64,000 nucleotides of DNA. It comes from Octopus vulgaris (taxonomy: Eukaryota). The notes below the pieces were generated by a model. The model saw only the letters and a list, made by a program, of their open reading frames with translations, ran no database searches and was not told the DNA's origin. This document shows positions 1,178 to 62,733 of this stretch, one piece after another. Made by a program: the position numbers and the translations under genes. Within the stretch, counting starts at the first letter, position 1. Each line of letters opens with the position of its first letter. The stretch lies in assembly GCA_951406725.2 (NCBI GenBank), contig OX597815.1, forward strand, positions 72,540,001-72,604,000. The letters run 5' to 3'.

Positions 1178-1522
1178 AACTCACCTCACTTTGTCAGCTT
1201 ATAAGAGAATCGTTGACCTCATACGCTGATTTCAAAAACAATAAAAGTGAAAACTACAAATAATGTGGGTGGCTTATGCTTGTTTCTCCTTGTCAGTCAT
1301 TAAGATAGTGCTTCTATGGCGATGGAGTAATTTTGACTCTTATTTCTAGCAATGCTGGTACTACTTAGTACTCTGCACTTTAGTGACGTCTATAAATTTG
1401 CCTTTAAGTTGTTAAATTACTAATACGCCACCCATATTATTTGTAGTTTTCAATTTTACCGTTTTTGAAATCAGCTTATGAGTTCAACGGTCTTCTTATA
1501 AGCTGACAAAGTGAGGTGAGTT
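1178..1522. mobile_element. HHR-repeat family B segment arranged as a fold-back (about 95-bp inverted arms)
   Basis: 1178-1273 (aactcacctcactttgtcagcttataag...gtgggtggc) is the imperfect reverse complement of 1427-1522; 1280-1393 recurs at 2240-2357. Confidence 0.75.
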
Positions 1523-2139
1523 CGGCAACACTTCTGCTCGTCCCTACCTCCCAATAAAAAAAGCCACCCTTAAAAATTTTTTTGCCCCCTTTCTCAACTA
1601 CGGTGAATACGAATCTGCAAAAAAATTGGCAAATATCGGCATTTTTAAATTACTCCCACCCACCTTTTCCTTCATTTTTTTGCTTTTTTCAAAAAAATCT
1701 TTTTTTTCAAAATATGTGCAAAATATGGAGATTATGATTCTGAAAAAATTTCCAAATATTTTTGTAAAATTTTTTTTAAGAATTTTTTTTTTTTTTTCTA
1801 AATATGCGGAAAAATACGGACATTATGATTCGGACAAAAATTTCAAAACATTTCTATAGTTACGGTTAGGGTTAGGATTTTAGGGTTAGGGTTAGCTTTA
1901 GGGTTTTAGGTTAGCGTTAGGGTTGTAGGTTAGCGTTAGGGTCTTAGGGTTAGGGTTAGTGTTGGGGAAAAAGGAAAAATTGAAGAATTGGAGGAAGTGG
2001 GGAAAAAAATTTCACAATGCTGACTTTTGGCAATTTTCCGGAACCTCCGTATCTGAAAACGGGGGTTTCTGACAAAAAAAATTTTTAATGAACAAATTTG
2101 GGAGAAAATGGGGTAGGGTGACGGGCAGAAGCCTATCCA
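1523..2139. mobile_element. Non-autonomous TIR element with internal degenerate (TTAGGG)n, inserted into the family-B repeat
   Basis: Subterminal inverted repeats cttctgctcgtccctacc / ggtagggtgacgggcagaag; flanking direct repeat TGAGTT at 1517-1522 and 2140-2145; ggttag repeats at about 1865-1960. Confidence 0.7.
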
Positions 2140-2164
2140 TGAGTTTAACCATAAGCGCAGTAAG

Positions 2165-2224
2165 AGCCACCGATGAGAATTAAGATGCTCTGCATCAAAA
2201 TTCGAAATTACCGGTGATCTGGCT
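2165..2224 (+). ncRNA. Type I hammerhead ribozyme motif, family B, one core change (CCGAUGA)
   Basis: AGCCA-CCGAUGA-GAAUU(AA)GAUGC UCU GCAUC(AA)AAUUC-GAAA-UUA CCGG UGA-UC-UGGCU; stems I, II and III all pair; AUC triplet at 2217-2219. Confidence 0.75.
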
Positions 2225-2352
2225 ATGCCCACTGAGGTACTTGTCTCCCCTTGTCAGTCATTAAGATGGTGCTTTTGTGGCGATGGAATTGTTTTGACTC
2301 TTATTTCTAGCAATGCAGGTACTACTTAGTACCCTCTGTCACTTTAGTGTCG

Positions 2353-2395
<43 letters not shown>

Positions 2396-2432
2396 ATGTG
2401 TATATATATATATATAAATGTGTGTGTGTATG

Positions 2433-2504
<72 letters not shown>

Positions 2505-3619: not shown

Positions 3620-4126
3620 ATGGAAAAATGCGAGTATGAAAAGTAATATTCTTAAGATTATATACATGGAAAAGTACAGGACAAGTTATTACACCTGTAA
3701 AAGTATAGGACAAGCTATTACTTCTAGTAAAGTAAAGAATAAGAAACTTTTTACTTAAAATATTGCAGCAAAGAATGCCAGTTCTTCTAATTTATCACTC
3801 TTTACATTTTTCATCTTTTAAATTTATTGTACAAAACTGTTCAGCTAATTTGTAAGTTTGTCTAATTAGTCACTTTTTTTCTGCATTTAAGATAGTAAAT
3901 TAACCAAATTCTACTTAAATTAGTGTTATTTGTAAACTATAATAAAATAAGTTTTAATATTCAAATTTTAATTATAGCTGCAATATTTTAAGTAACAAGT
4001 TTCTTATTCTTTACTTTACTAGAAGTAATAGCTTGTCCTATATTTTTACATATGTAATAACTTGTCCTGTAATTTTCCTGGTTTATAATCTTAAGAATAT
4101 GACTTTTCATGCTTGCATTTTTCCAT
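3620..4126. mobile_element. MITE / fold-back element with about 150-bp terminal inverted repeats
   Basis: 3620-3769 (atggaaaaatgcgagtatgaaaag...aatattgcagc) is the imperfect reverse complement of 3977-4126. Confidence 0.8.
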
Positions 4127-5013
4127 ATAATCCATGATTTTTCCAGACATTGTTGTTATAAGATAATTAATAATGTGTCAATTAATAATTTAAGATTTTA
4201 CCTTATAAAATATTGAAAGATAATATTTCAATTTTTTCCTGTAAGTGATGATAATATTTAAATTTTTTTCATGTTTAATTTAAATATATGTTGTGATTGA
4301 ATTATTTGATATTACCCATCCACACCAAATTAATGGCAGGGATTTTTACCATGTTGTTGGTTGCACCATGGCTCACCAAAAGTTACAAACAATAAGACTC
4401 CAAAACCATCTGTTACCAGGCTCGCCTTAAGTAACCCAATTTTGCAATATTAGGTCACAGGAATTCATCCAACGAAAAAGAAAATTCCAGTGATTACTGG
4501 ATCGGCGGGGAACCCTTCCTCCACCTCATTTTTCCGAACCAAAATAAGGGATTTTCAGTATATTAGGAAGTCAGGGTACTTGATTCTCCGCAAAAAATCT
4601 TTTTTTTTTTTTTTTTTCGTAGTGAAAATCGTGCAGGTGTCAATATAGAAATTGACCTTAATGTTGTTGATATTTAGCCTCAAATAAACCCTGATACTGC
4701 AAACCGATCATCAAAGACACTCCAGCCTTCAGCAAATCGTCTTTTTAGGGATAATCTAGGACATTACATACAATGGGCGTGTAATTTAGATAGGGGATAC
4801 TTTGGCTGCTATTTTTAGCGTGTCGAGTGACCAGGTAGAGGCTCTCTCATTGATTTGGTTGCGTGATGAGATTTTTTACACATATATGTAATATGTATAT
4901 ATATATATCATCGGCAGAAGTTAGCGAGTAAGTCAAAACCTGAGAGTTTCGTGTATTGGCACTTATCAAACACGAATTTGTCCATTGTCACTCTGTAACT
5001 TGTAACGAAATAA

Positions 5014-5957
5014 CTTCTAAAATACAAAATTTTGTCAAAAACGTTAAAAGTAAACCCTGTTCTATGTGACACATTCTACCAGTATCAGAAGTTTGAAAGT
5101 GTTTAGTTTTAAAAAAAATTGATTAAATAAGCTCTACGTCTAATTGAATAGATCCGAAATGGATGAAAGGCAAAGCCGACCTCGATGGAATTTGAACTCA
5201 AAACGTAAAGACAGACGAAATACCGCTTCTAAGATACAAAATTTTGTCAAAAACATTAAGAGTAGCCCTGTTCTATGTGACACATTCTACCAGTATCGGA
5301 AGTTTACTTTAAAAAAAAATGGATTTAATAATCCGTACGTCAAAGTCGACCTCGGCGAAATTTGAACTCAAAACGTAAAGACAGACGAAATACCGCTTCT
5401 AAGATACAAAATTTTGTCAAAAACATTAAGAGTAGCCCTGTTCTATGTGACACATTCTACCAGTATCGGAAGTTTACTTTAAAAAAAAAATGAATTTAAT
5501 AATCCGTACGTCAAAGTCGACCTCGGCGAAATTTGAACTCAAAACGTAAAGACAGACGTAATACCGCTTCTAAGATACAAAATTTTGTCAAAAACATTAA
5601 GAGTAGCCCTGTTCTATGTGACACATTCTACCAGTATCGGAAGTTTACTTTAAAAAAAAATGAATTTAATAATCCGTACCTCAAAGTCGACCTCGGCGAA
5701 ATTTGAACTCAAAACGTAAAGACAGACGAAATACCGCTTCTAAGATACAAAATTTTGTCAAAAACATTAAGAGTAGCCCTGTTCTATGTGACACATTCTA
5801 CCAGTATCTGAAGTTTACTTTAAGAAAAAATGAATTTAATAATCCGTACGTCAAAGTCGACCTCGGCGAAATTTGAACTCAAAACGTAAAGACAGACGAA
5901 ATGCCGTTAAGTATTTCGCCTGGTGCGTTAACGTTTTCTTGCCAGCACGCCGCCTTA
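5014..5957. repeat. Tandem array of about 170-bp units (about 5 copies) containing a SINE-B fragment
   Basis: aagatacaaaattttgtc recurs at about 5231, 5401, 5572 and 5742; each unit contains gtcgacctcggcgaaatttgaactc from SINE B. Confidence 0.9.
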
Positions 5958-11660: not shown

Positions 11661-12112
11661 CTGTAAATCCTCGAGTATAGTCCGCCCTTGAGTATAACAC
11701 GCAGAGGATTTTTAAGGGGCTGTACCTGTGAAAAACCTAAACCTTGTGTATAATACGCACCCCTTCTCTATCTTGAGTCAAGGAGGTCTATATAACGTCT
11801 TTGGTTTGTAAAAATGTATACGATAACGTCCTTTATTATTATTGTATATATAACATAATGCAAACGTGTAGCTTTTTTGTGCATTTTGCTTGCAGAAAAT
11901 AAAGAAATAACAGTAATGACGTTTAATAAATGTTGCTTACTGCAAGTTACGGATGATTCTTTTATGACTTCATTGCTTTCAGGCTTAGCTTAAGGTATTT
12001 TCGCGCCCGACATCACAAAATGAGTCTGAATAAACATTGCCGGACAGCAAATCGAGACTTGGACATTGCTTAGAAAATAATTTTCATTTTTAACCTCGTA
12101 TATAGTACGCAC
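11661..12112. mobile_element. Truncated pogo/Tigger-like non-autonomous DNA transposon
   Basis: Begins TA-ctgtaaatcctcgagtatagtccgc, with repeated subterminal motif cctcgagtatag / ccttgagtataa / cctcgtatatagtacgcac. Confidence 0.55.
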
Positions 12113-12155
12113 TCCAGACTGATGACGAGCAAATACTCAGAAACTAGTCTCTGGA
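12113..12155 (+). ncRNA. Type I hammerhead ribozyme, family A copy 1
   Basis: UCCAGA-CUGAUGA-C GAG CAAAUA CUC A-GAAA-C UA G-UC-UCUGGA; palindromic stem III ACUAGU; GUC at 12147-12149. Confidence 0.85.
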
Positions 12156-12462
12156 TGCAGGCTTAGCTGGGTGGAGGTGCTTGTCTTCCCCTTGTAAACA
12201 TAAGAAGACAGGAAATATGTCAAGGCCGACAGGTAGCGTTGATGCTTCCTAGGGCTAAATAGCAGTAGTATGATTCCCTTCATGGGACTGTCGCATTAAG
12301 TTGACAGTATACAACTACTCTGTCGTACCACTACTGCTTATATCTCTCTGAGATATTTCGAAATGTAATATTTCTATTTTTTAATCAGTGGATATATTTC
12401 ACTAGAATTCTTACATGTTTACAAGGGCTAGAAAAGCATCTCCGACTAGCAGGCCATGATAC

Positions 12463-12505
12463 TCCAGACTGATGACGAGCAAAGACTCAGAAACTAGTCT
12501 CTGGA
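12463..12505 (+). ncRNA. Type I hammerhead ribozyme, family A copy 2
   Basis: Same as copy 1 except loop II CAAAGA; GUC at 12497-12499. Confidence 0.85.
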
Positions 12506-12719
12506 TGCAGGCTTAGCTGGGTGGGGGTACTTGTCTCCCCCTTGTAAACATAAGGACACAGGAAATGTATCAAGGCGACAGAAAGCGTTGATGCTTCCTA
12601 GGGCTAAATAGCAGTGGTGTGATTCCCTTCATGGGACTGTCACATTAAGTTGACAGTATACAACTACTCTATCTCAACTATCTCAACTACTGCTTATATC
12701 TCTCTGAGATAGAAATCTC

Positions 12720-19584: not shown

Positions 19585-19770
19585 ATCGCGTGTGTACCGT
19601 TGGCGATTTTTATCCCTCCGTCTTCCCTTCTTTGGATCTTTCCTTTACCTATGTTTCTGACGAAGAGCTCCGCTCGAAACGTTAAACCCTCCTTCTTTCC
19701 TGAGCGTCCAATAATACTATACTTGTTCCACGTCCTCGCGTTGTTGTGTTTTCATGTTTGGATTAACTAT
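19585..19770 (+). mobile_element. Penelope-like 3' remnant carrying a minimal hammerhead (19654-19688)
   Basis: GUUU-CUGACGA-A-GAGC UCC GCUC-GAAA-CG-UU-AAAC; related copy on the minus strand at 45150-45360. Confidence 0.75.
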
Positions 19771-23894: not shown

Positions 23895-24200
23895 CTCGAC
23901 AACGTAAAGTGTACTTGCCATCTGAATGTGTCTAGCCACTGGGGGTGGGTGTTACTGACGCTTTTAGCCCCAGGAGATCGTCGTCTCTAGCTGGCCTTAG
24001 ACACAAATATCTGTGCCCTTATGATATTTGCAAAGGGAGGTCATCCCCCTCGAAAACCTAAGTGATACATACGGACTATAGTTTCAAGGTTTTTGCCTCT
24101 CGTCAACGCATGGCAAACACCGGTTTTCGATGAAGGAGACCTGTTTGCAAATAACTATTTAATGTTTTTCCCAGCAACCACAGTCACTGATTTAGAAAAA
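23895..24200 (-). mobile_element. Retrozyme-like element, family C, homologous to family A
   Basis: Minus strand: HHR followed by gacctccctttgcaaat..cataagggcacag..tgtctaaggcc..cctggggctaaaagcgtcagtaac, collinear with 12185-12270. Confidence 0.7.
24068..24112 (-). ncRNA. Type I hammerhead ribozyme, family C, core UUGACGA (C3U)
   Basis: CAUGCG-UUGACGA-GAGG CAAAAA CCUU-GAAA-C UAUA G-UC-CGUAUG; palindromic stem III ACUAUAGU. Confidence 0.75.
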
Positions 24201-24204
24201 CTGT

Positions 24205-24572
24205 CTGACAAGAGAGAAAATCTCCCTACAGCATCCGGGGCATAGCCAGACCACCACTGATTTCGCATTTGATTAATGCAGGTCAATGGCTCTCATCCGA
24301 CTGTCTAAGGTTAACCTAGCTCGCCTAGTCAGTTTATAAGAGTTACCGTAGAAATTGTACGCTGATTTCAAAAGTGGTAAAAGTGAAAATTATAGATAAT
24401 AAAGGTGGCTTATTCGCAATATACAACCGAAAGGCAAAAGCATAGATGTCACTTTCTTGTGGCTTTGAGTTGTTTTGGCTCTTATTTCTAGCTATTGCTA
24501 GCCACTTTAGTGACGACTATACTTCTGCCTTTCGGTTGTAAATTGTGAATAAGCCACCTTTATTATTATATA
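24205..24572. mobile_element. HHR-repeat family B variant: minus-strand degenerate HHR (24244-24291) plus fold-back arm
   Basis: Minus strand AGCCA-UUGACCU-GCAUU AAUCA AAUGC-GAAA-UCAGUGGUGG-UC-UGGCU; hairpin ataataaaggtggcttattc..caaccgaaaggca / tgcctttcggttg..gaataagccacctttattat. Confidence 0.65.
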
Positions 24573-24575
24573 TTT

Positions 24576-26844: not shown

Positions 26845-26894
26845 TATATATATATATATGAGAGAGAGAGAGACAGAGAGAGAGAGATCGTTAT

Positions 26895-27575
26895 TAAATT
26901 GACTAAAGGTACTAGTTAGCACCAACATTGCTAGAAATAAAAGTCAAAACAACTCATAGCCACGAGAAAGCACTTAACTTATGACTGACAAGAGAGACAA
27001 TCTCCCAATAGCATCCGGGGCATAGCCAGACCACCAGTGATTTCGCATTTGATTAATGCAGGTCAATGGCTCTCATCCGACTGTCTAAGGTTAACCTAGC
27101 TCGCCTAGTCAGTTTATAAGAGTTACCGTAGAAATCGTACGCTGATTTCAAAAGTGGTAAAAGTGAAAATTATAGATAATAAAGGTGGCTTATTCGCAAT
27201 ATACAACCGAAAGGCAAAAGTATAGACGTCACTTTCTTGTGGCTTTCAGTTGTTTTGACTCTTATTTCTAGCTATTGCTAGCCACTTTAGTGATGACTAT
27301 ACTTCTGCCTTTCGGTTGTAAATTGTGAATAAGCCACCTTTATTATTATATATATGTAAGGATAAAGATCGGAACGATGACCTCCCTTGCATATACAAAA
27401 CGGGCGCGAACTGTATGTCGGTAGCCAACTAGAAAAGATGTTTTCCTGGGGCTAAAAGACAGTAACATCGTCCTTGTATTAGGACTGCCACATTATGTTG
27501 GCAAATAAACTTTACTATATGTGTATGTATATATATATAGTGGCTGTGTGGTAAGTAGCTTGCTTACCAACCGGG
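26895..27575. repeat. Near-identical local duplicate of 24205-24795 (family B, family C fragment and SINE head), with about 90 bp extra family-B sequence
   Basis: ctgacaagagag..gcatccggggcatagccagaccacc through gcttaccaaccggg is shared with few substitutions. Confidence 0.9.
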
Positions 27576-28849: not shown

Positions 28850-30285
28850 CGTCCGTCGTTGATGATGATGACCAAGAATATCACATGGGGGAAGAGAGCA
28901 GGGCACTGTGTATCCGACTGTGCTTGATCTGTCGGCTGTGTGCTCGGAAGGCTTTGCCGCGTCGGGCACTGGTAATATGTTGGGACTGAAGACGAGGGGT
29001 TGACTCTGGACTTGCGCAGTTTGTTTTCTTTGTGCCCTTGCAATCATGCTCTGTTCTTGGAAGGTAGCACCTCTGTTCGTGCATGTTTCTCCAGGCAAGA
29101 CGGTCTTACGCTTGCCTTTCCCAGATGTCGGGGTTGCTCTCAAAGCTCTTCACTGAAGTTGTGAAGCACTTTTTCTGTCCACCTTGCGTGTGCCTGCCTT
29201 CCACCAGTTCGCTCTATAAAAGTCTCTTGGAGAGTACTGTCTGACATCTGAACAAGGTAGCCAGCCCACTTGACTTGTACTCTCCCCAGCAGTATGTAAA
29301 TGCTTGGCAGATGAGTTTGAGGGTGAACCCCTGTGCCTGGGACCTTGTCTTGCCAGGTGATTTTCAAGTGCTTTCTCAGGCAATTTCTGTGGGAACGGTT
29401 TAGCCTTTTAGCGTGGCTTTCGTAAACCATCCAAGTTTCGCAGGCATACAATAGTTGGTAGTCAGCCTTTTACTTCAAGTTCGTGGTCAGCCTTTTGCTT
29501 TTCCTTTCCCATACTGATTCACATTGCAGACTGAAAGCTGAGCTTCCTTTGGTGATACCTGCTTCGACTTCATTATCAATGTGCACAAATCTGGAGAGTG
29601 TACTGCCAAGGTACGTGACATATCAACAACCTTCAAAGTTTGCCCTTCGTCAGTGATAGTTGCTGTTACATACGGCTTCTGCGGGATAGGTTGGTGCATG
29701 ACCTCTGTCTTCTGAGTATGGACTGTGGGGCCAAAGACATTGAAGTCAGTTGAAAAGCAGTTCATGCTCTTCTGCATCTGGGCCTTTGTGGGGGCGTTGT
29801 GTGCGCAGTCATCTGCAAACAGGAAGTCGTACACTGACTCCTCTTCCACTTAGGTTTTGATCTGTAGCCTCCACAGGCTGAAGAGTCTTCCAATGTCTTG
29901 AATCTGATCTTGATGCTGGTTTCATCGTCGTTACAGAATGTATCCGACACCATGGCTGAGAACATGATGTTCAATAGCGTAAGTACGAGTACACAGCCCT
30001 GCTTGACTCCGTTAGTGATTGGAAATACGGAGGGAGGATCACCACTACCCAGTACTCGAACGAGCTGATCATCGTCAAAGTGTTGCATGATTCTCATGTA
30101 TTTGTTCGAGTAACCGAATTTCCCATTGTAATCGAAAACCCCTCACGACGGACAGTGTCAAAGCCCGTGGTTATGTCTACAAACGTTCTGTGTAGGTCCT
30201 TGTTCTGTTCCTCGCATTTCTCTTGAAGTTGGCGTGCGGCAAAAATCATGCCGACTGTCCTACGTCCCTCTCTGAAGCCACGCTG
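28850..30285 (-). pseudogene. RTE-clade (BovB-like) LINE, 5'-truncated, frameshifted reverse transcriptase
   Basis: QRGFREGRRTVGMIFAARQLQEKCEEQ; FVD..GFDTV; NGVKQGCVL; DFLFADDCA; YACETW..RCLRK..ITWQDKVP; gatgatgat tail region. Confidence 0.95.
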
Positions 30286-30344
30286 ACATGCATATATATA
30301 ATATAAATGTATTACATACAAACATGCATATGTATGTATATACA

Positions 30345-30388
<44 letters not shown>

Positions 30389-33087: not shown

Positions 33088-35267
33088 TAGAGGTGACTCC
33101 AGGCCATGAGCGTCACTTGGGCTCATCACAGATTTCGCATAAGACACATGTATAAAAGTAGGTAAGAGACATAATGCACACCGCAGACTTATATGCGCTC
33201 TGATAATTTAACAATAAGACAAAAATATAGTTTTAATATGAAAATTACTCACTTCATTTATCCATGAACTCCAGTCGTCTTGGTTTGATGGCGAAATCGC
33301 GTAATATCCTGTCATTCTGCTACTTCTTAGCCAAGTCATTCAAAATGCTTTTCTCGGTGGAAATACGAGCTAGTGAAGACAGGCTGTTCTTGGTTCATTG
33401 TGCTTCTCAGATATGAGCGGATTCTATCCAACGTTGAGAAACTTCTCTCATTAGCGACTGATGTTAAAGGGATGGTCAGCACTAGTTTAATTAGCTTAAT
33501 GGATTCCGGCATAGCGGAAGTCAACTCCAATTTATTCAGTAATTCTAAAATGGAGTCGATTGATTTGCACTTTTTAAAATTACTGTCAATATACTTATAT
33601 TTTAGCTTGTCACTAAGCTCTTACAGTCAAAAATACAGGACTACTTGTTTTCTAGAGAGTCCATGTGTTGCATGGGAAATGAATTTGCAAACTTTTCAAA
33701 CTTATTAACATCTTGTAATACAAAAAATGCATACTCCTGAATGCCAGAAAATCTCTCTCGTAAGGACATTAGAATGTTATCAACTATTTCGAAATAGATA
33801 GTTTTGTAACTAATTTGTGCACCTCTGACTCTTTTTCTAGGAGGAGGATCTGACTCATCTGCCTGTTCAATGACAGCAGCTGTATCGCGCAGAATGTTTT
33901 CATAATGTTAGTCCTTACGATAATCTTTAACACAATGAATGAAGTTATTTAGTTTACTGTGACCATGCTTTATGTCGAGTAGCTTACACTGTAGGATACC
34001 AAAGACTTTTCCAGTCTGAGAAAGAATGTCATGAAAGCAATTGATGAAAAACATGAATGTGAAATCATTCAACTTTGCCAATAGATTGTTTGACAATGTG
34101 AATCTTCATCCCACTTTTTACGAGAGCCTAGAATATTTGTGATGGTATTTTTCAAGTTTTCATGCAATAGTTTTATGAATGACACGGTTCTTGATCTATA
34201 GTACCATCTTGTATTATGCTTGAGACTCCTGAAAACTATTTCGATCCCTCTTTAGTAGAAAGTCTGGAAGCAAGCATGCTGTCGATTTCAGCAAATAGTT
34301 TACAATAGTTTACGGTAATTTCCTCTATTAAGGCTGTTACTTCCTTCATCATGTCCTTGTAAAGGCAACTCTTGTTTACACAGGTATAACACTGCATTTG
34401 TTAACTGCTTTAAATATTGTCTATTTTCTTCAGTTGCTTTGTTATGTCGTTCTTTTTTCCAGTTTAGCCGACTCACTAATAGCTGTCACAATATCGTACA
34501 GTTCGAAAGTTTTCAAGCTTTTGTAACTACATAAATGGACGTACTAATTTACTGTGATGCTTACAGTCACTCCGGATACTTTTATAATTATTATCTGTCC
34601 ACGACTGATTAGCTTTTGGTTGAAACAACAAACATAGCCAGCATTAGAGTTTCTTTGTGACGCTATTTGCAACAAAGCCAATCTGTTCATACCATTTTAT
34701 CTGGAATGTTCGAGTTCCAGCTTTTAGCTTTCAATGAAGGAATCGGCCTATCTGCTCGAAGAATTTCACGTTTTTCCGTAATATTTCTAGTCCCAAATGG
34801 CTTACTTTTTATATCTAGCACTATGTCTTTTCATTTCTAAGTTAAGAGTAAAAATAAAGCAACCCTGCAAAACAACTGACTGTTATACACAGACTCACAG
34901 AATAACAGCAATCAAGTAACGACAGCGGAGTGCACAACAAATATCAACGATCTGACAGCTGCCTGTAGTCTTGACAAGAGATGCCTTTTACACCTACCAG
35001 GCTCGTTCGTATTAGCCCGGGTTGCTGGATAATACTTCGTTCCTTTAAGAATATTGTTGAAGAGAAACTTTTCATAGATTGGAATTTAAATCCTAATCTC
35101 CATAGAAATTTCTTATTTCAAGAAAACATTGAATTTGAATTACTTTTAATTTCAACGAGTATAGATAACAACTCGGGTTGTAACTTCTGAGCCCGAGTCA
35201 GGTACGTGTGAACGATGTCGAGAGAACGTCTGTTACGAATGACATTTTTTGACACAGGGCATCTCTA
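33088..35267 (-). mobile_element. Decayed hAT DNA transposon (ZMYM1-like transposase pseudogene)
   Basis: hAT C-terminal dimerisation motif IKLIKLVLTIPLTSVANERSFSTLDRIRSYLRSTMNQE (33336-33530); LLAKLNDFTFMFFINCFHDIL; putative TIRs TAGAGGTG / CATCTCTA. Confidence 0.85.
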
Positions 35268-35798: not shown

Positions 35799-36079
35799 AA
35801 TTACGCATCTTTTAAGATTCCATTCAATTAGGTACTTACATTGGGGCACCTGCTAGATCGGTATAATCCGCACACCCAAACAGTATTAATTGAATATTGA
35901 ATATCGAGACTTTGTGCAGGGGTGTTTGTACCTGATATTCCTGCCCTGTGTGCAGACAATGCAACCCAGTCAAGTGAAGATGTCCAATCTTGGCAATTCA
36001 GACATGTACTTTTTATCAAGGTACTTTCTATAGTATTTCTGAAGTGCAGATTCCAAGTTAGGTGAACAGAATATAAATA

Positions 36080-36413
36080 AGTAACAAAGATGTACAGATG
36101 TCAATTCATTACAGTCGTTTCAAGCGACTCCTTTAATTTATTAACGAAAATATTACATCATTTGAAAGAAACCGTTCTCGTCAGATGACCGCATAGACTT
36201 CAAAGACAAAAGATACAACCATATCCTTAATATATTCACATATTTTCAGTTCGATTATTGATGGGAATATGTTAAGGTTGTATCCTTTATGTTTGAAGTC
36301 CATGTGGTCATCTGACGAGAACAGTTTGTCTTCAAATGTAATGTTTCCTTAATCAATTAAAGGAGTCGCTTGAAACGGCCGTAATGAATTGACACCTATA
36401 CATCTTTGCTACT
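36080..36413. repeat. About 330-bp imperfect palindrome with an outward-facing hammerhead motif on each arm
   Basis: Plus strand UCAU-CUGACGA(36312)..GAAA(36372)-CGGCCG-UA-AUGA; the minus arm mirrors it (36184 to 36105) with GAAACGACUGUA. Confidence 0.8.
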
Positions 36414-36417
36414 CATT

Positions 36418-36453
<36 letters not shown>

Positions 36454-37413: not shown

Positions 37414-37532
37414 GTAAAAAAACATATACAAACTGGGACAAGAACGTGAAACATTTAGAAGACGACACAAAAAACACGGACGGGACATTCGAAAGCCTTC
37501 AATCTTCAGTCAAGAACCAGATCATCTTTGCA

Positions 37533-37585
<53 letters not shown>

Positions 37586-42350: not shown

Positions 42351-43494
42351 ATAAGCACTTAGTGGATGACAATATATACATCTCTGATTATGAGCAATAG
42401 TGGGGGAGCATCATAGCCATGTGTTGAGAAAGATTCTTTGGTGTTTGAATAAATGTTTGAAGGAAATATTTGCCATTTTTCATACTTTCTAGGGGTAAGC
42501 AAATTTTCATACTTCGTAGGAGTAAGCTAAGAGAAAATAACAGTTACTACCTAAGGACGAAAGTCGTGTTACACAGTGTAATTTGTACACTTTTGGGAGT
42601 CCACATATGTTGCTTCTCATCTTCTTCCATAAAAACCTCCTCCAGATCATGTCGAAGTTAGCTTTAAAATTGGGGTGTAAGGATACTTGATATTTTTTTA
42701 ATATTTCCAATGATCTCACTAACTACAAAAATGATATTCACTCTGCCCCTCCTAGGTCAACGATCGAATCGACTCTCGCTTGCGTATTTTTTCGGTGTTA
42801 ATTCTTATCCAATCAAGAAAGATTCTACTGAAAGCCTTTACCTGTATTGAGACAAGAATGAAATTGTCCAGAAGATTCCGAGGTGTTACTTGTTGCCCAT
42901 TGTACATATTGGACTTACCGGTTGCATGGTTAAGGAACTCGCTTTGCGACCACGTGGTTTTGGGTTCGGCCTCGTTGCAAAGCATCTTTGGCAAAATGTC
43001 CGACACTAGCCCCTAATCGACCAGAGCGAATTTGCAAGACGAAAACAGTGAGGAAGCCTCTTACACACACACACACACACACGTATGTATGTATGTATGT
43101 ATGTATGTATGTATATATTCATGTTTGTATATATGTTTGGGTGTACGTATATGTATACGCATACACACAAACACTTGTAGATGCGTATATCTCTGTGCAT
43201 GTATGTATATGTATATATATATATATATATATATGCATATATGCATACATGCATATATATATATATATATATATATGCGTGCATACGCGTGTGCGCCTCT
43301 GTCATTGTGTATACCCCAATACCACCGATGTTCGTTTGTTTACATACCTGCAACTTAGCAGCTTGGAAAAAAATCCGCCTCTCACCCCAGAAACATGCAT
43401 ATATAGCAGATTCAAAAGTATTGTCATAAAAGTGCCGCCCGTAATGCACCGCTCCCCATCCCACCCTCACTTTCTAGGTATGCTACAGAATATT

Positions 43495-47554: not shown

Positions 47555-47709
47555 GATACATTCGTTCATGCATACATACACATACATACATAGACAAACA
47601 TGTATAAATACATACACATCCATCCATGCACACACAAACACACACACACTTACACATATATGCATACGTACGAACGAAATCCATACATACATATGTACTT
47701 GGAAGCATG

Positions 47710-47715
47710 CATACA

Positions 47716-47747
<32 letters not shown>

Positions 47748-50700
47748 CATACATACATACATACATACATACATACATACATACATACATACATACATAC
47801 ATACATACATACATACATACATACATACATACATACATACATACATACATACATACATACATACATACATACATACATACATACATACATACATACATAC
47901 ATACATACATACATACATACATACATACATACATACATACATACATACATACATACATACATACATACATACATACATACATACATACATACATACATAC
48001 ATACATACATACATACATACATACATACATACATACATACATACATACATACATACATACATACATACATACATACATACATACATACATACATACATAC
48101 ATACATACATACATACATACATACATACATACATACATACATACATACATACATACATACATACATACATACATACATACATACATACATACATACATAC
48201 ATACATACATACATACATACATACATACATACATACATACATACATACATACATACATACATACATACATACATACATACATACATACATACATACATAC
48301 ATACATACATACATACATACATACATACATACATACATACATACATACATACATACATACATACATACATACATACATACATACATACATACATACATAC
48401 ATACATACATACATACATACATACATACATACATACATACATACATACATACATACATACATACATACATACATACATACATACATACATACATACATAC
48501 ATACATACATACATACATACATACATACATACATACATACATACATACATACATACATACATACATACATACATACATACATACATACATACATACATAC
48601 ATACATACATACATACATACATACATACATACATACATACATACATACATACATACATACATACATACATACATACATACATACATACATACATACATAC
48701 ATACATACATACATACATACATACATACATACATACATACATACATACATACATACATACATACATACATACATACATACATACATACATACATACATAC
48801 ATACATACATACATACATACATACATACATACATACATACATACATACATACATACATACATACATACATACATACATACATACATACATACATACATAC
48901 ATACATACATACATACATACATACATACATACATACATACATACATACATACATACATACATACATACATACATACATACATACATACATACATACATAC
49001 ATACATACATACATACATACATACATACATACATACATACATACATACATACATACATACATACATACATACATACATACATACATACATACATACATAC
49101 ATACATACATACATACATACATACATACATACATACATACATACATACATACATACATACATACATACATACATACATACATACATACATACATACATAC
49201 ATACATACATACATACATACATACATACATACATACATACATACATACATACATACATACATACATACATACATACATACATACATACATACATACATAC
49301 ATACATACATACATACATACATACATACATACATACATACATACATACATACATACATACATACATACATACATACATACATACATACATACATACATAC
49401 ATACATACATACATACATACATACATACATACATACATACATACATACATACATACATACATACATACATACATACATACATACATACATACATACATAC
49501 ATACATACATACATACATACATACATACATACATACATACATACATACATACATACATACATACATACATACATACATACATACATACATACATACATAC
49601 ATACATACATACATACATACATACATACATACATACATACATACATACATACATACATACATACATACATACATACATACATACATACATACATACATAC
49701 ATACATACATACATACATACATACATACATACATACATACATACATACATACATACATACATACATACATACATACATACATACATACATACATACATAC
49801 ATACATACATACATACATACATACATACATACATACATACATACATACATACATACATACATACATACATACATACATACATACATACATACATACATAC
49901 ATACATACATACATACATACATACATACATACATACATACATACATACATACATACATACATACATACATACATACATACATACATACATACATACATAC
50001 ATACATACATACATACATACATACATACATACATACATACATACATACATACATACATACATACATACATACATACATACATACATACATACATACATAC
50101 ATACATACATACATACATACATACATACATACATACATACATACATACATACATACATACATACATACATACATACATACATACATACATACATACATAC
50201 ATACATACATACATACATACATACATACATACATACATACATACATACATACATACATACATACATACATACATACATACATACATACATACATACATAC
50301 ATACATACATACATACATACATACATACATACATACATACATACATACATACATACATACATACATACATACATACATACATACATACATACATACATAC
50401 ATACATACATACATACATACATACATACATACATACATACATACATACATACATACATACATACATACATACATACATACATACATACATACATACATAC
50501 ATACATACATACATACATACATACATACATACATACATACATACATACATACATACATACATACATACATACATACATACATACATACATACATACATAC
50601 ATACATACATACATACATACATACATACATACATACATACATACATACATACATACATACATACATACATACATACATACATACATACATACATACATAC

Positions 50701-51033
50701 ATACATACATACATACATACATACATACATACATACATACATACATACATACATACATACATACATACATACATACATACATACATACATACATACATAC
50801 ATACATACATACATACATACATACATACATACATACATACATACATACATACATACATACATACATACATACATACATACATACATACATACATACATAC
50901 ATACATACATACATACATACATACATACATACATACATACATACATACATACATACATACATACATACATACATACATACATACATACATACATACATAC
51001 ATACATACATACATACATACATACATACATACA

Positions 51034-51062
<29 letters not shown>
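47710..51062. repeat. (TACA)n tetranucleotide array, about 3.3 kb, essentially perfect
   Basis: Uninterrupted atac repeats from about 47747 to 51062. Confidence 0.98.
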
Positions 51063-51064
<2 letters not shown>

Positions 51065-51505
51065 GAAGATTTTTTTTATAGTTCATTGTATTTATTTGTT
51101 AACATTTATTGTTTTGTAAGTCACACAAAAATAAGTGGGGAACCCTAATAAAAGCCAAGGTGAACTTGGACATCAAGAAGAAAAATAAAACGAAATTGCT
51201 GAGCGTTGCTTTCTTAAATAGTTTTATGGTTCAGAAAAAAAGTAGGGGAGAAAATGCATGATGGCGGTAAGGATGATAGTCATGAGGGATGGTGAGAGGA
51301 GAACGGAAAAGTAACGCTAGAAGAATAAAACGAAGGGAACGTGGGGGGAGAGGAGGGGAGAGGAGAAGGAAAAGAAAGAGAATATGGAGGGGTGCAGGAG
51401 AAGAGACAGCGTGACCGAGAAATTAAAAAGAGGAGGAAAAGAAATTTACGCAGTTTCGGCGGCACCTTCAAAGTAACTTAACATATAGTTTAAAAGAATG
51501 GATAC

Positions 51506-62678: not shown

Positions 62679-62733
62679 CCTAGCATCTGATGAGATGGTC
62701 TCCGATACGCCCACGAAACTGTTAGTCATGTGG
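62679..62733 (+). ncRNA. Type I hammerhead ribozyme candidate with intact core
   Basis: GCAU-CUGAUGA-G(A)UGG..CCAC-GAAA-CU GUU AG-UC-AUGU; GUC at 62725-62727. Confidence 0.65.

Follow-up and report, generated by a model that had tools for sequence, protein, structure and literature searches.

A split 338-nt repeat with a type I hammerhead motif in Octopus vulgaris, likely a decayed Penelope-type, retrozyme-like element

Metazoan non-LTR retrozymes are short, low-GC, non-coding units that each carry one type I hammerhead ribozyme (HHR) and occur in many copies, in head-to-tail arrays with an HHR in each unit; the 350–390-bp units of Mytilus galloprovincialis are an example (Cervera and de la Pena, 2020, PMC7229834). 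In a recent preprint, non-LTR retrozyme units are derived from the pLTRs of Penelope-like elements (PLEs), and “active” retrozymes are defined by at least two consecutive complete HHRs (Li, Clavereau and Pollet, 2026, bioRxiv 10.64898/2026.07.22.740005). The 35 species given as sampled in that preprint (31 vertebrates, three insects, and one anthozoan) include no mollusc. PLEs themselves carry pLTR hammerheads with a G10.1-C11.1 pair, a large helix II and a palindromic helix III, the latter being the basis of dimeric cleavage (Cervera and de la Pena, 2014, PMC4209133). Their insertions are described as partial tandems with a 5′-abutting inverted copy, in microsatellite targets without discernible TSD (Craig et al., 2021, PMC8557442).

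Here, we describe a locus related to these systems in a window of 64,000 nucleotides of Octopus vulgaris DNA, the whole stretch that was analysed. The unit is 338 nt long with 39% GC and no ORF, which fits the short (150–450 bp), low-GC (<45%), non-coding format of metazoan non-LTR retrozymes with a type I HHR. It resembles the units of PMC7229834 in size, GC content, lack of coding sequence, single type I HHR per unit, head-to-tail order and many copies. In contrast to their arrays, it is found as dispersed 1.03- to 1.35-mers that each have a single, damaged HHR and an inverted arm on the 5′ side. Helix III is also different, a 12-nt palindrome instead of the 1–2 bp with a 2–4-nt loop of canonical metazoan HHRs. 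With the PLE-derived retrozymes of the preprint (bioRxiv 10.64898/2026.07.22.740005), the unit shares its size range and the dispersed monomer copies. However, the split copy (hereafter B1, at 1173–2357) amounts to 1.35 units with one HHR, not an array of two consecutive ones, and lies outside the definition of “active” in that preprint; for this reason, and because of its variant core, we do not class it as an active retrozyme. With PLE insertions (PMC4209133; PMC8557442) it shares the pLTR-like direct repeat, the 5′ inverted copy and the microsatellite target without discernible TSD, and its HHR has the three pLTR hammerhead features named above, whereas, compared with the elements of these papers, it has no ORF and its inverted arm lacks the element's 3′ end.

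Among the papers listed by searches of the open literature, judged by titles and abstract openings, no description of such a family in cephalopods was found; Repbase, Dfam, supplements and subscription papers lie outside this scope and may hold the family under another label. The word “ribozyme” is absent from the available main text of two papers on cephalopod repeats (PMC13282606; PMC8967140). Overall, the split locus is likely one decayed copy of a known class of mobile element, and as such fairly ordinary.

The split unit and its interruption

The features of the locus and of its relatives are collected in Table 1. By inspection of the sequence, two TGAGTT direct repeats (1517–1522 and 2140–2145) were found to bracket 1523–2139, and a 15-nt marker to occur twice, at 1290 and 2251. 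Excision of 623 nt (1523–2139 plus one TGAGTT) gives a period of exactly 338, and the direct repeats 1279–1393 and 2240–2357 are then identical at 105 of 118 alignment columns. An earlier note on this DNA had proposed this TGAGTT-flanked join and a period of about 338 nt. Both are borne out, the join by two independent observations: the inverted arm has the empty site, a single TGAGTT followed by TAACC, and contigs in all three of the DNA sequencing runs (1, 4, and 2 contigs) join 1516 to 2140 with the 623 nt absent and 6 common letters. The filled junction 1522/1523 is spanned, with 0–3 other letters, by contigs of the same three runs; the 617-bp insertion is therefore not an assembly artefact, and that explanation was rejected. 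The note had also held that the repeat is visible only after removal of the transposon. This is right for the period, but the raw sequence already shows the HHR in one piece, and copies free of the interruption exist at 26886–27350 and 24202–24575. The inverted partial copy that it placed upstream is present, with limits at 1173–1277 and not 1178–1273.

Table 1. Coordinates of the split unit, its parts and related copies in the window
Feature	Position	Strand	Remarks
Partial copy in inverse orientation, head-to-head to the sense part	1173–1277	−	Unit positions 1423–1522 and 2146–2150; 90% identity
First direct repeat (pLTR-like), from the 3′ part of the preceding unit	1279–1393	+	Starts 20 nt past the HHR cut-site register
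5′ part of the 338-nt unit	1394–1522	+	First TGAGTT at its end
Secondary insertion, non-coding, multicopy	1523–2139	.	617 bp, between 6-bp direct repeats
Second copy of the 6-bp duplication	2140–2145	+	
3′ part of the unit	2146–2357	+	HHR and second direct repeat (2240–2357)
Type I hammerhead motif	2165–2224	+	Predicted cut after 2219; helix I 5 bp, core U4C, interrupted 5+5-bp helix II, GAAA, 12-nt self-complementary helix III
Motif of about 30 nt 3′ of the cut site, common to family A	2236–2266	+	Candidate cis signal
(TC)n/(TA)n/(TG)n microsatellite	2358–2500	+	Adjoins the 3′ end
Presumed family A of the earlier note	12111–12711	+	Period 350; CUGAUGA core exact in both of its HHRs; palindromic helix III
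Copy B3	24202–24575	−	In a local duplication of B2 (97% identity); no separate insertion
Independent copy B2	26886–27350	−	About 10 nt longer than one unit (27233 to about 26886); microsatellite on both sides; damaged HHR

The insert carries imperfect subterminal inverted repeats (1531–1548/2112–2131), 8 nt inside its ends, as well as an internal repeat spaced 91 nt and GGGTTA-like repeats at about 1864–1967. Contig depth within it is very high. On these grounds it is a separate multicopy element. Crypton-type DNA elements are described as having direct repeats of 6 bp at their termini and no true TIRs (Kojima and Jurka, 2011, PMC3212892), and the insert has the same ends, a likeness of layout, while it lacks coding sequence. 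A Crypton-like origin is a lead only, since the 6-bp TSD of another DNA transposon class fits equally; a literature search for CryptonV gave nothing with which to class the insert.

The window is microsatellite-rich, animal-type DNA. Another repeat family occurs on both flanks of the element (996–1168 and 2546–2708) and again at 37426–37536, and the inverted arm starts directly after the end of the left flanking repeat. Elsewhere in the window are a near-perfect (ATAC)n tract of about 3.5 kb (about 47600–51070), a tandem array with a period of about 170 nt (5005–5906) that takes in a piece of a frequent SINE-like repeat, and an inverted repeat at 3620–4126 (150 nt, 93%, 207-nt spacer), possibly a true MITE. 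The SINE-like repeats presumably resemble known Octopus ones. Coding remnants comprise a broken reverse transcriptase at 29490–30345 (domain remnant 30097–30345), which we take to be RTE-like, a dimerisation domain remnant of a hAT transposase (33339–33620) and a weak integrase zinc finger remnant (42510–42722). A promoter and terminator scan, with a bacterial model on animal DNA, stayed at chance level. No tRNA was found in the 64-kb window, and the possibility of a tRNA-SINE was rejected.

The hammerhead motif and its family

The earlier note had read 2165–2224 as a type I HHR with the core CCGAUGA, and its anatomy agrees with this reading. Helix I (2165–2169/2220–2224) is formed by AGCCA and UGGCU. 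In the core (2170–2176), C at 2171 replaces U4, and all other positions match CUGANGA/GAAA/UH. Helix II (2177–2203) has 5+5 bp and opens with G-C; GAAA is at 2204–2207, helix III at 2207–2218, and C17 at 2219. Three helices of 5, 5+5, and 4–6 bp stand round the core, helix I being open. An equal stem score was reached in 1 of 100 block-shuffled 64-kb windows, and a palindrome-aware HHR scan gave four matches in the window, against 0.38 ± 0.62 (maximum 3) over 200 shuffles.

The U4C change “considerably decreases activity in vitro” (PMC3088659). Rfam at gathering gave no match in the whole window, where the exact-core HHRs of family A were missed too; at E ≤ 10, region 1100–2500 gave nine matches, none of them an HHR and all far under gathering. 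The minimum-energy fold is predicted to be a rod (−22.9 kcal/mol) and not the HHR (−11.5 kcal/mol). This rod would pair 2168–2172 with 2212–2216, thereby using the variant base 2171. The C at position 4, the lack of Rfam detection and a rod more stable by 11 kcal/mol together argue that the HHR of B1 is probably weak or dead and the copy inactive. Helix III of B1 is predicted to pair with itself at −15.1 kcal/mol even with T at 2209. A search with a 20-nt conserved pattern returned no viral locus and six metagenome loci, all due to chance, their likeness ending at 20–29 nt.

Two further window copies and one alignment of public sequencing contigs provide the evidence at the family level. B2 and B3 are about 73% identical to B1. 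In the HHR of B2, the core reads CGGAUGA, helix I is missing next to it, and 8–10 nt fewer precede it; because this damage adjoins a length change, the G in the core is ambiguous. B3 also has CGGAUGA, and a 595-nt direct duplication (24202–24796/26982–27576, 97% identity) carries both copies. The contig alignment covered region 1165–2356, insert included, at 80% likeness, in three DNA runs and X15 (guessed to be an RNA run), of 24 listed runs, none of them given as RNA. For this whole stretch, 3985, 4944, and 5187 contigs were aligned in the DNA runs. Depth in the HHR bin was 125–229 times the median of the listed long contigs, and about 900–1600 times that median in the most conserved 3′ bins; both are crude ratios and not copy numbers. 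Position 2209 reads C instead of T in 81–83% of the depth (54, 62, and 46 contigs), which makes helix III a perfect 12-nt palindrome.

In the three DNA runs, 35, 45, and 31 contigs run past 2349 into a consensus (agreement 0.55–0.57) that resembles 1386 onward, so that head-to-tail junctions are common. To the question of the earlier note about a tandem arrangement, the answer is thus positive, all the more as the inverted arm of B2 (27248–27347) crosses the unit junction. Neither the window nor the contigs showed an array in which this family has two HHRs. From X15, six contigs were aligned, none over the HHR; one spans 2248–2349 with 13 other letters and runs on like the next unit, and neither observation bears on expression. 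The circular fold of the unit did not reach significance, with z −1.5 for B1 (2 of 40 shuffles as good) and z +0.4 for B2, both decayed copies. Taken together, these data support a multicopy, non-coding, head-to-tail 338-nt unit with type I HHR anatomy.

Family A has a strongly significant circular fold with z −6.4 (0 of 40 shuffles as good) and is a better retrozyme candidate than B1. Its helix III is a perfect palindrome, different from that of family B, to which the split unit belongs. The two units align collinearly over about 190 nt with a score of 42, which none of 1000 shuffles reached (maximum 41), and to judge by this alignment the families are probably distant relatives. For this reason the term “second retrozyme-like family” of the earlier note is slightly too strong, although a separate 338-nt multicopy unit does exist. 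An automatic alignment of the HHRs of both families did not bring the cores into register. The motif common to both, 20–30 nt past the cut, was equalled in 7 of 2000 shuffles for B1 and 691 of 2000 for B2; 2 of 620 unrelated window stretches score as high, and this evidence is modest alone.

Further type I HHR-like motifs, in unrelated sequence and most with a palindromic helix III, occur at 19657–19683 (+), 24074–24106 (−), 36312–36383 (+) with 36110–36184 (−), and 62687–62727 (+); the pair forms an inverted repeat at 36071–36422. With several HHR families in 64 kb, this suggests that PLE-type hammerheads are dense in the genome.

Insertion geometry and competing readings

Both independent insertions, B1 and B2, have a head-to-head inverted arm and a 3′ end set against a microsatellite. 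Their 3′ ends lie within a few nucleotides of a common register, against (TC)n, a comparison of two insertions only. In B1, the arm and the sense part together leave out the register 2151–2239, and with it the whole HHR; that the sense part begins 20 nt past the cut-site register is a single case and could be due to chance (20 nt of 338 amount to about 6%). Both direct repeats carry G at 1321/2282 and at 1324/2285, positions read as T by most contigs; this agrees with a single template that was copied twice, past a full unit. The partial tandem, the head-to-head 5′ inversion and the 3′ end at a microsatellite agree with the Penelope-type integration geometry that the earlier note had suggested. 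Contrary to the textbook PLE picture, the inverted arms lack the element's 3′ end.

The inverted repeat (100 nt, 90% identity), the lack of an Rfam HHR match and the rod as minimum-energy fold could speak for a MITE or a fold-back DNA transposon whose hammerhead look arose by chance. However, the right arm is internal, 207 nt of the element lying beyond it, and the arms span different registers in B1 and B2, so that the element is not a MITE. The earlier note had named fixed TIR ends with TSDs as the mark of a true MITE: neither was found at B1 or B2, whose outer ends show no TSD. The unit is also head-to-tail and the HHR match above chance. A MITE was thus rejected at the two insertions and is extremely improbable as an explanation; the note had ascribed the MITE look to the inverted insertion geometry.

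The Penelope connection itself can be read in other ways. The unit might be the mere pLTR region of an autonomous PLE, left as truncated and rearranged scars, with no stand-alone mini-element. In PLE terminal repeats, HHRs typically combine a palindromic helix III with a large helix II and often stand alone or form pairs on opposite strands (PMC4209133), retrozymes match pLTRs (bioRxiv 10.64898/2026.07.22.740005), and several further HHRs of this type lie in the window. Nevertheless, in B1 and B2 the sequence past the 3′ end reaches the HHR and the 3′ end again after no more than 338 nt and without an ORF, the head-to-tail continuation recurs in contigs of three DNA runs, and no PLE reverse transcriptase or GIY-YIG domain was found in the 115 of 220 high-complexity window frames that were scanned. 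We consider this origin unlikely. It is quite unlikely that the element is a PLE-type passenger whose HHR was already non-functional or non-canonical family-wide, position 4 of the core being C or mixed, and whose self-cleavage had no role. B1 and B2 both deviate from U4, Naiad and Chlamys PLEs are reported to spread without canonical HHRs (PMC8557442), and cleavage was absent in eight of the nine dimers tested from Xenopus (bioRxiv 10.64898/2026.07.22.740005). Moreover, among the 40 of 104 differences between contigs and window that are listed, none falls in 2170–2176, and each of the 18 that were computed has a share of 76% or more in one DNA run or another; if the differences are ordered by share, which is an assumption, T at 2171 falls short of an overwhelming majority. 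Against this, T at 2171 may be among the other 64 differences, the perfect palindrome and the remaining core bases look selected, and the G of B2 is ambiguous as explained above.

Proposed mobilisation and significance

The explanation that we favour, and consider probable, is that B1 is a decayed non-autonomous Penelope-type retroelement, similar to animal retrozymes; a Penelope-like reverse transcriptase would have produced it from RNA in multimeric or circular form. While the anatomy is observed, every enzymatic and RNA step below is inferred from the cited papers. In tandem read-through transcripts, two HHRs would pair via the palindromic helix III and cut after C17. Cleavage would free monomers of about 338 nt, which may circularise. 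A PLE enzyme with RT and GIY-YIG activities would nick a microsatellite and prime from a favoured position, about 135 nt to the 3′ side of the cut. Copying would exceed one unit (1.35 in B1, 1.03 in B2). The inverted arm would stem from a switch of strands. U4C and T at 2209 would represent later decay, and a DNA-type element would have inserted 20 nt upstream of the HHR.

A more specific reading appears rather doubtful to us. The ancestral HHR of the family would have had C at position 4 and cut only as a dimer held by the 12-bp palindromic helix III; the family would have spread as dispersed copies of one to two units from circular RNA with a fixed point of entry, under the guidance of the signal of about 30 nt common to family A. 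If this is true, the genome keeps hundreds of junctions that record the Penelope mobilisation of ribozyme circles.

For annotators, a caution follows: dispersed copies of such elements resemble MITEs. In the papers cited, the insertion mode of retrozymes in animals and the enzyme involved are still a hypothesis. Dispersed copies with a partial tandem, an inverted arm and a shared 3′ end, in which this genome seems to abound, are footprints able to test the Penelope model.
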